Sequence record: OZ209057.1
Length of the DNA: 64,000 nt
Reading direction: 5' to 3' (one strand)
Origin: Escherichia phage T4
How positions within the stretch are numbered: the first letter of the stretch is position 1; each line of letters begins with the position of its first letter. The translations under genes were made by a program, and so were the position numbers. This document shows positions 17,612 to 17,924 of the stretch, piece after piece. The notes beneath the pieces are model-generated. The model was not told where the DNA came from. It did no database searches and was given only the letters and a program-made list of their open reading frames with translations.

Positions 17612-17723
17612 TATATTCTCTCATTTATTGCAGCAAAAATGAATTATACAATTCTTCATCATATGTATTTGATAGTAATACTAACACGTTTTGCGATAAA
17701 TATTAATTTAAAGGAGGATATAT

Positions 17724-17924
17724 ATGGTACAAAAATTAATGGCACTTGTTAATGCCATAAAAGGTAATAAGAAACGTATAGCTTTTACTATTTCTGCTAT
17801 GGTAGGAATTTTACTCTGGAACTTTATTTTATCACCTGTTGCAATTGCACATGGTGTTAATATTCCAGTAGTTACTCTTGATACATTCGTAGATTTAGCA
17901 TTTGCTTTAGTTGGGTTAATTTAA
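17724..17924 (+). CDS. plus-strand small membrane protein (66 aa) in dam-61 intergenic gap
   Basis: AAAGGAGG 6 nt upstream of ATG; one predicted TM helix; exactly fills the gap, overlapping the gene 61 stop by 4 nt. Confidence 0.55.
   Translation: MVQKLMALVNAIKGNKKRIAFTISAMVGILLWNFILSPVAIAHGVNIPVVTLDTFVDLAFALVGLI

Follow-up and report, generated by a model that had tools for sequence, protein, structure and literature searches.

dam.1, a conserved plus-strand gene of bacteriophage T4 with a putative late promoter and a predicted distant kinship with PF11351 holins

For phage gene regulation, as for the control of lysis by holins and antiholins, bacteriophage T4 serves as the reference system. 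The T4 holin T, the antiholins RI and RIII, and the endolysin E act late in infection at the inner membrane or in the periplasm. T, which consists of a single membrane helix and a large periplasmic domain, is required for lysis, and T4 t mutants do not lyse. Class II holins, or pinholins, such as S68 of phage 21, are about 70 aa long and contain two hydrophobic segments. Pinholins have a charged C-terminal cytoplasmic tail and belong to a lysis cassette with a SAR endolysin. Proteins of the Pfam family PF11351 (GTA_holin_3TM) are longer, about 120-170 aa and typically about 135 aa, and consist of an N-terminal helix, a polar region of ~60 residues, two C-terminal membrane helices, and a basic tail (RTYEKVKG-like). 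The family, which has many members in phages, was named by Pfam after the holin of the Rhodobacter capsulatus gene transfer agent, and by that name rcc00556 is presumably a member. The endolysin/holin locus rcc00555-rcc00556 of R. capsulatus is needed for lysis and release of the gene transfer agent (PMC5026251, PMC3423380). In this study, we compare with these systems the small protein encoded by dam.1, a plus-strand gene between dam and gene 61, in a stretch of 64,000 nt of T4 DNA (OZ209057.1; hereafter, the window).

The dam.1 coding sequence was found at 17724..17924 on the plus strand (ATG at 17724, TAA at 17922-17924), where an earlier sequence-only reading of the window had proposed an ORF of 66 aa; its product is identical to ADJ39749.1. 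That reading had also described a ribosome-binding site 6 nt before the ATG and, farther upstream, a late promoter with one mismatch. The former is the Shine-Dalgarno sequence AAAGGAGG at 17710-17717 (plus strand, 6-nt spacer), and the latter is GATAAATA at 17695-17702 (plus strand), which sits 21 nt before the ATG and matches the T4 late promoter TATAAATA at 7/8 positions, with G for T at -13. The primase gene 61 (17921..18949, minus strand) converges with its 3' end on dam.1, and the tail-to-tail arrangement of the two stop codons was borne out as a 4-nt overlap, TTAA, at 17921-17924. The statement that the ORF exactly fills the space between dam and gene 61 was not: the gap measures 309 nt, dam.1 takes up 201 nt, and 112 nt (17612-17723) are left upstream. 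In these 112 nt, the plus strand carries the promoter-like motif and the ribosome-binding site, and the minus strand carries the dam ribosome-binding site and P(E)17.40, a putative early promoter for dam (-10 at 17678-17682, -35 at 17701-17706). P(E)17.40 is the annotation of the depositors of X01416, mapped here from the feature table of that record to the window, and it stands back-to-back with the plus-strand late motif of dam.1.

The claim that this is the only credible rightward gene in 64 kb survived inspection. The sole rival plus-strand CDS is gene 55.7, which the T4T record puts on the plus strand at 41657-41743. Because in-frame stops are present on both strands at these coordinates, we rejected 55.7 as a plus-strand gene there; the feature in T4T is an annotation artefact, either misplaced or given the wrong strand. 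In a crude screen of plus-strand ATG-initiated ORFs that have 30 aa or more and lie for the most part outside long minus-strand ORFs, dam.1 alone combined a Shine-Dalgarno sequence with an upstream ATAAATA. The 3.6 kb of the window between 16000 and 19600 show no difference from T4T (HM137666) and 10 differences from NC_000866, among them a cluster at 17193-17196 in dam.

As an ORF, dam.1 is already known. It is T4Tp032 (ADJ39749.1) in T4T and bears the UniRef name 'Uncharacterized protein dam.1'; the exact protein belongs to a 156-member cluster and occurs on hundreds of contigs. Its counterparts are RB69ORF029w in RB69, gp16.1 in S16, and a 'hypothetical protein' in most T4-like genomes. The profile phrog_2024 (function unknown) matches dam.1 at E=1.5e-31, with residues 2-66 on profile positions 1-65 of 65. 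RB69ORF029w, S16 gp16.1, and phrog_2024 are the same gene as dam.1, and every entry is hypothetical or of unknown function. To the question whether the ORF is annotated in T4, which the sequence-only reading had left open, the answer is yes in T4T and no in NC_000866 and AF158101, both of which contain the unbroken frame with a single substitution, A25T. What we add is firm evidence that the gene is conserved along with its late-type promoter, together with a predicted link to a holin family that has statistical support.

The study that combined dual RNA-seq of T4 with proteomics counted NC_000866 features only, the CRISPRi-ART guides were designed from NC_000866, and the HIDEN-SEQ T4 annotation table passes straight from dam to gene 61. 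Its absence from NC_000866 thus leaves dam.1 outside the coverage of recent T4 omics work and knock-down screens. We searched the literature for dam.1 and for RB69ORF029w without success, and a search for T4 Ribo-seq found no paper. A conserved, probably late gene that is missing from the RefSeq annotation is a blind spot in 'genome-wide' T4 data, and even without a holin-like role for its product, adding dam.1 would be a useful annotation fix. A similar omission was observed in Edwardsiella phage PEi20, in which an intact ortholog (locus L022, about 1720-1905), with a protein identical to that of Klebsiella phage KLB31, is unannotated in RefSeq.

Conservation across T4-like phages had been named as a check on the gene, with poor conservation and synonymous-like drift as the adverse outcome. 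The pattern observed was the opposite, strong and protein-like. Within Tequatrovirus and within Mosigvirus, dN/dS was 0.07-0.2 (Nei-Gojobori), and variable sites favor the third codon position. In comparisons between genera, synonymous change has reached saturation (pS 0.7-0.8), with the proteins still ~54% identical; RB69ORF029w, at the same position, shares 54% of its amino acids with dam.1. A tblastn search found dam.1 in 692 phage records, in 686 of which the match covered at least 80%. At least six Tevenvirinae genera keep its place and strand, a plus-strand gene that converges on gene 61 being present in Tequatro-, Mosig-, Gapriver-, Jiaoda-, Kanagawa-, and Gelderlandvirus. The same 4-nt stop overlap with gene 61 is found in RB69, VR25 (paralog B), KLB31, S16, and Bas37; in KpV477 the two genes are separated by a gap of 18 nt, and in Q7622 they overlap by 24 nt. 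Only 4 nt of dam.1 overlap another gene, and the opposite strand therefore cannot explain the constraint. On this comparative evidence, dam.1 is judged to be a genuine conserved T4 gene.

The region also contains minus-strand signals. Within codons 6-12 of dam.1, an 8-bp stem at 17739-17758 (minus strand), followed by TAATTTTTGT, resembles an intrinsic terminator for minus-strand transcripts exiting gene 61. This hairpin, the annotated early promoter, and the omission of the ORF from the curated reference annotation are what could be said for dam.1 being a chance open frame in a region that serves minus-strand signals only, namely the gene 61 terminator and the dam promoter. We give that explanation next to no credence, as the conservation data already contradict it: dN/dS lies far below 1, amino-acid identity persists under synonymous saturation, and the ORF is intact in the 686 of 692 matching records. 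Moreover, the ORF is conserved outside the T4 lineage whereas the hairpin is not, and RB69, which lacks dam, still has the ORF. The hairpin was considered as a conserved RNA element inside dam.1 and rejected in that capacity; it occurs in T4 and e112 and does not extend beyond the T4 lineage. RB69, VR25, KpV477, and KLB31 lack the hairpin, so it does not belong to the conserved unit.

The upstream neighbor of dam.1 varies widely: it is dam in T4, a 186-aa ORF in e112 and Lutter, gene 56 in RB69, VR25, and S16, a MazG-like gene in Kanagawavirus, and an unrelated ORF in KpV477. Despite these unrelated flanks, ATAAATA and GGAGG are retained in most genera. T4 and the e112/Lutter type differ by an indel of ~539 bp that carries the 186-aa minus-strand gene (window 17690-17697; locus L003, 1695-2240). 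Its junction is a shared 'GAT' at the exact 5' edge of GATAAATA, and the conserved block therefore consists of promoter, ribosome-binding site, and ORF. Paralogs were seen in several phages. The Gapriverviruses VR25 and VR26 have a tandem Dam.1 paralog between the ortholog and gene 61 (locus L005, 1701-1901). In VR20 and TH40 the paralog reads ATG-TGA, with a stop at codon 2 (loci L007 and L006, about 1695-1900), and looks freshly inactivated. The Klebsiella phages Potts1 and Marfa have the B-type paralog only. The family as a whole is small, and its members all come from phages and prophages of Enterobacterales. An exhaustive profile search of 1.8 billion protein cluster representatives returned only 16 matches, all of 33-70 aa, which share WN[FY]xxxPxAAxxGxxLPPxx[LI][ED].

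Among 50 T4 late promoter sites, 32 are perfect and 18 are deviant, 9 of the latter with A at -13 and the rest with other single deviations (Geiduschek and Kassavetis, PMC2988020). Position -13 is the most variable one of T4-type late promoters (PMC2988020, PMC1524935) and is poorly conserved among T4-like phages (Nolan et al., PMC1524935). T4 late transcripts run in either direction (PMC2988020). Upstream of dam.1, an ATAAATA core lies 16-22 nt before the ATG in T4, e112, RB69, VR25, TH40, KpV477, and KLB31, and the base at -13 is G in T4 and e112, A in RB69 and KpV477, and C in VR25, TH40, and KLB31. Q7622 carries the perfect TATAAATA and S16 carries ATTAAATA at this place, and GGAG or GGAGG follows at constant spacing in all relatives examined. 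The Lutter record annotates an 8-bp plus-strand promoter at the equivalent position; the RB69 late-promoter prediction of Nolan et al. (PMC1524935) lists no site upstream of RB69ORF029w. Within the window, ATAAATA is four-fold depleted (11 found, 43 expected; 6 on the plus strand), and TATAAATA was found 3 times against 10.8 expected, a depletion that fits selection against stray late promoters in an early-gene region. The other plus-strand ATAAATA sites are at 2788, 19316, 24354, 24529, and 63023. A putative late promoter is the best reading of GATAAATA; the G at -13 may weaken it. From the position of the motif we infer a transcription start near 17708, and dam.1 is probably made late.

No plus-strand terminator-like site was found directly after dam.1, the nearest one lying near 22.1 kb at chance level; any transcript would therefore run antisense into gene 61. 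This feature, together with the convergent stop-overlap with gene 61 in nearly all genera, is compatible with a locus that works mainly at the RNA level, in which a late plus-strand transcript antisense to gene 61 dampens the mRNA of primase and of other early genes, with the peptide playing a secondary part. We consider such a role highly improbable. The amino acids are under strong purifying selection and the strong Shine-Dalgarno site is conserved; family members also occur in prophages with no primase nearby, and the arrangement in KpV477, with its gap, is looser.

The predicted Dam.1 protein starts with a basic, amphipathic segment (residues 1-18, net +5), followed by the main hydrophobic segment at 19-42, a predicted transmembrane helix with the invariant residues W32-N33 and P38. 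A conserved loop (43-51, G44...P48) leads to a second and shorter hydrophobic segment (47-66), in which a helix at 52-66 contains D53 and D57. The segment charges are +5, 0, and -2; the charge is at the N-terminus, and the C-terminus, ...ALVGLI, is uncharged. A membrane protein with one transmembrane helix, as the sequence-only reading had it, agrees with the one strong hydrophobic segment at 19-42, to which the shorter one is to be added. TMHMM gave a single helix at 21-41 for RB69ORF029w (PMC1524935 supplement). The AlphaFold2 model of Dam.1 has helices at 2-11, 15-42, and 52-63, with a mean pLDDT of 81. Tryptic digestion would release essentially a single usable peptide, LMALVNAIK, which makes Dam.1 a difficult target for shotgun proteomics.

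Database searches with the T4 protein alone were uninformative: a Pfam scan gave no match at E≤10, and an NCBIfam scan gave nothing. A Foldseek search with the AlphaFold2 model against viral structures returned family members only. Two candidates were tried and rejected. AaeX matched one relative at E=0.013 (cut-off, 82 bits) and was regarded as membrane-helix noise, and in a profile search of PDB sequences the only matches were to M4 helices of nicotinic receptors, at E≥0.012, and were judged compositional.

Members of the family, by comparison, gave sub-threshold, in-register hmmscan matches to one and the same part of PF11351. Five members matched, the best being P0137 with 20.3 bits (E=8.5e-4); no Dam.1 family member attains the PF11351 gathering score of 24.8 bits. 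One longer bacterial member matches phrog_3427, 'holin', at E=5e-4. The bacterial members of 94-97 aa bridge Dam.1 and PF11351 and are collinear with the holins end to end. Profile-profile comparison was performed with hhalign against an alignment of 78 distinct PF11351 members from IMG/VR, including two that score 70-78 bits. The probability was 95% (P=3.8e-8) for the whole family, 93.7% (P=2e-7) for the Tevenvirinae phage members only, and 87% (P=3.8e-6) for the T4/RB69/VR25/Klebsiella-type members only. Reversed alignments, as a control, gave less than 1% (P 0.07-0.28), and the best of 30 column shuffles gave 9.8% (P 0.0033). After correction by a factor of about 25,000 for the number of Pfam families, the whole-family and the Tevenvirinae-only results stay significant. 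The T4 protein alone matches the holin HMM weakly (P=3.3e-4). These statistics support Dam.1 as a distant, shrunken relative of the PF11351 holins.

The aligned part corresponds to the main membrane helix, the loop, and the last helix of the holins, with the common pattern [WY]-[NQ]-F-I-x-x-P ... L-P-x-[LI]-[DE] ... G-[ML]-[LV]-G-L. Both groups are phage-borne small membrane proteins. They differ in that Dam.1, at 66 aa, is limited to a short N-terminal helix followed by the two C-terminal ones, with neither the polar region nor the basic tail, and it ends with ...VGLI where the PF11351 holins go on. They also differ in genomic setting. About a quarter of the ORFs that flank PF11351 genes are peptidoglycan hydrolases, about 40% of sampled PF11351 loci adjoin an endolysin, and one of the two bona fide PF11351 holins that we fetched adjoins a lysozyme, whereas Dam.1 has no endolysin neighbor. 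The neighbors of dam.1 are dam and gene 61, no endolysin is annotated in the window, and dam.1 is 49 kb from the endolysin gene e and far from t. The window also includes the antiholin gene rI, at 59190-59483.

Kinship with a holin family does not by itself establish what Dam.1 does. The reading that we favor, with a probability of roughly 60%, is that dam.1 encodes a late, accessory, and dispensable holin-like protein of the inner membrane that descends from a shrunken PF11351 lineage. Under this reading, late in infection the gp55-RNA polymerase would start at GATAAATA and produce a short-leadered plus-strand mRNA, on which the strong Shine-Dalgarno site would drive synthesis of the 66-residue protein. 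Dam.1 would insert in the inner membrane, its basic N-terminus facing the cytoplasm, and, by homology, form a two-helix hairpin of residues 19-42 and about 48-66. It would keep the two C-terminal membrane helices and the loop of PF11351 and would have lost the polar N-terminal region and the basic tail. There it may exert an accessory late activity, either small-hole or depolarising, or modulate lysis timing. Late transcription, this topology, and a lysis-related activity are what we infer for Dam.1, and the remote kinship with holins makes for a concrete and cheap hypothesis, which, if borne out, would bring a new component into a textbook lysis pathway.

Dam.1 is not the main holin of T4, which is T: no endolysin gene adjoins dam.1, and the protein lacks the charged C-terminal tail that is typical of holins. 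The failure of t mutants to lyse likewise shows that Dam.1 on its own cannot serve as the holin; given its holin homology, an accessory role in lysis timing or depolarisation is therefore favored. We found no sequence relationship between Dam.1 and the T4 lysis proteins T, RI, RIII, and E. Dam.1 resembles S68 of phage 21 in size and in its two hydrophobic segments, but it lacks the charged C-terminal tail and the SAR-endolysin cassette of the pinholins. Whereas T is required for T4 lysis, the positional ortholog of Dam.1 is dispensable in phage Bas37. This gene, bas37_0144, is an ortholog by position, length, and strand (201 nt, plus strand, 4-nt overlap with the primase gene) and was classified as 'Non-essential', with transposon insertions at 20 of 24 TA sites. 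It showed no conditional phenotype in two host comparisons (q=1 in both), and the text of the Bas37 screen paper does not mention it.

A bolder version, which we regard as unlikely, is that T4 and most enterobacterial T-even phages have a hidden second holin-family protein, a late pinhole or depolarising factor, or a partner or antagonist of T, that tunes lysis timing or lysis inhibition. Its absence from the reference annotation and its dispensability in the laboratory would explain why such a protein has gone unnoticed for decades.

The main rival reading, although we hold it to be doubtful, is that Dam.1 is a real late membrane protein with a non-lytic function, such as superinfection exclusion, protection against an envelope-linked defence of the host, or assistance in membrane-associated assembly, and that its holin ancestry is structural only. 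Dam.1 would then be a holin-fold protein cut to 66 residues and possibly reused at the membrane. The dispensability of the Bas37 gene agrees with such a function, as do the missing C-terminal charged tail, the lack of an endolysin neighbor in T4, and the restriction of the family to enterobacterial phages and prophages. In Escherichia coli, a prophage homolog is the last prophage gene, after the tail genes, which is a typical moron position, and homologs of 97 aa are found directly upstream of RelA_SpoT-domain genes. On the other hand, the sole detectable relatives outside the family are holins in lysis cassettes, and in the E. coli prophage, a T4-e-like lysozyme and a small membrane + coiled-coil protein are encoded about 1.5 kb away from the homolog. 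A late promoter also suits a role at the lysis stage better than exclusion; to our knowledge, the known exclusion genes of T4 are early genes.

The prophage and RelA_SpoT contexts fit the lytic and the non-lytic readings alike. The E. coli prophage with the 70-aa homolog is inserted in yegD and was present in 25 of 5426 complete genomes. Its end contains a DUF2730 membrane + coiled-coil protein, the T4-e-like lysozyme on the opposite strand, a GIY-YIG remnant, two uncharacterized ORFs, and the Dam.1 homolog (locus L029, 3772-6213; locus L117, 7219-9654). The 97-aa homologs directly upstream of RelA_SpoT-domain genes were observed in Raoultella and in metagenomes (loci L032-L034).
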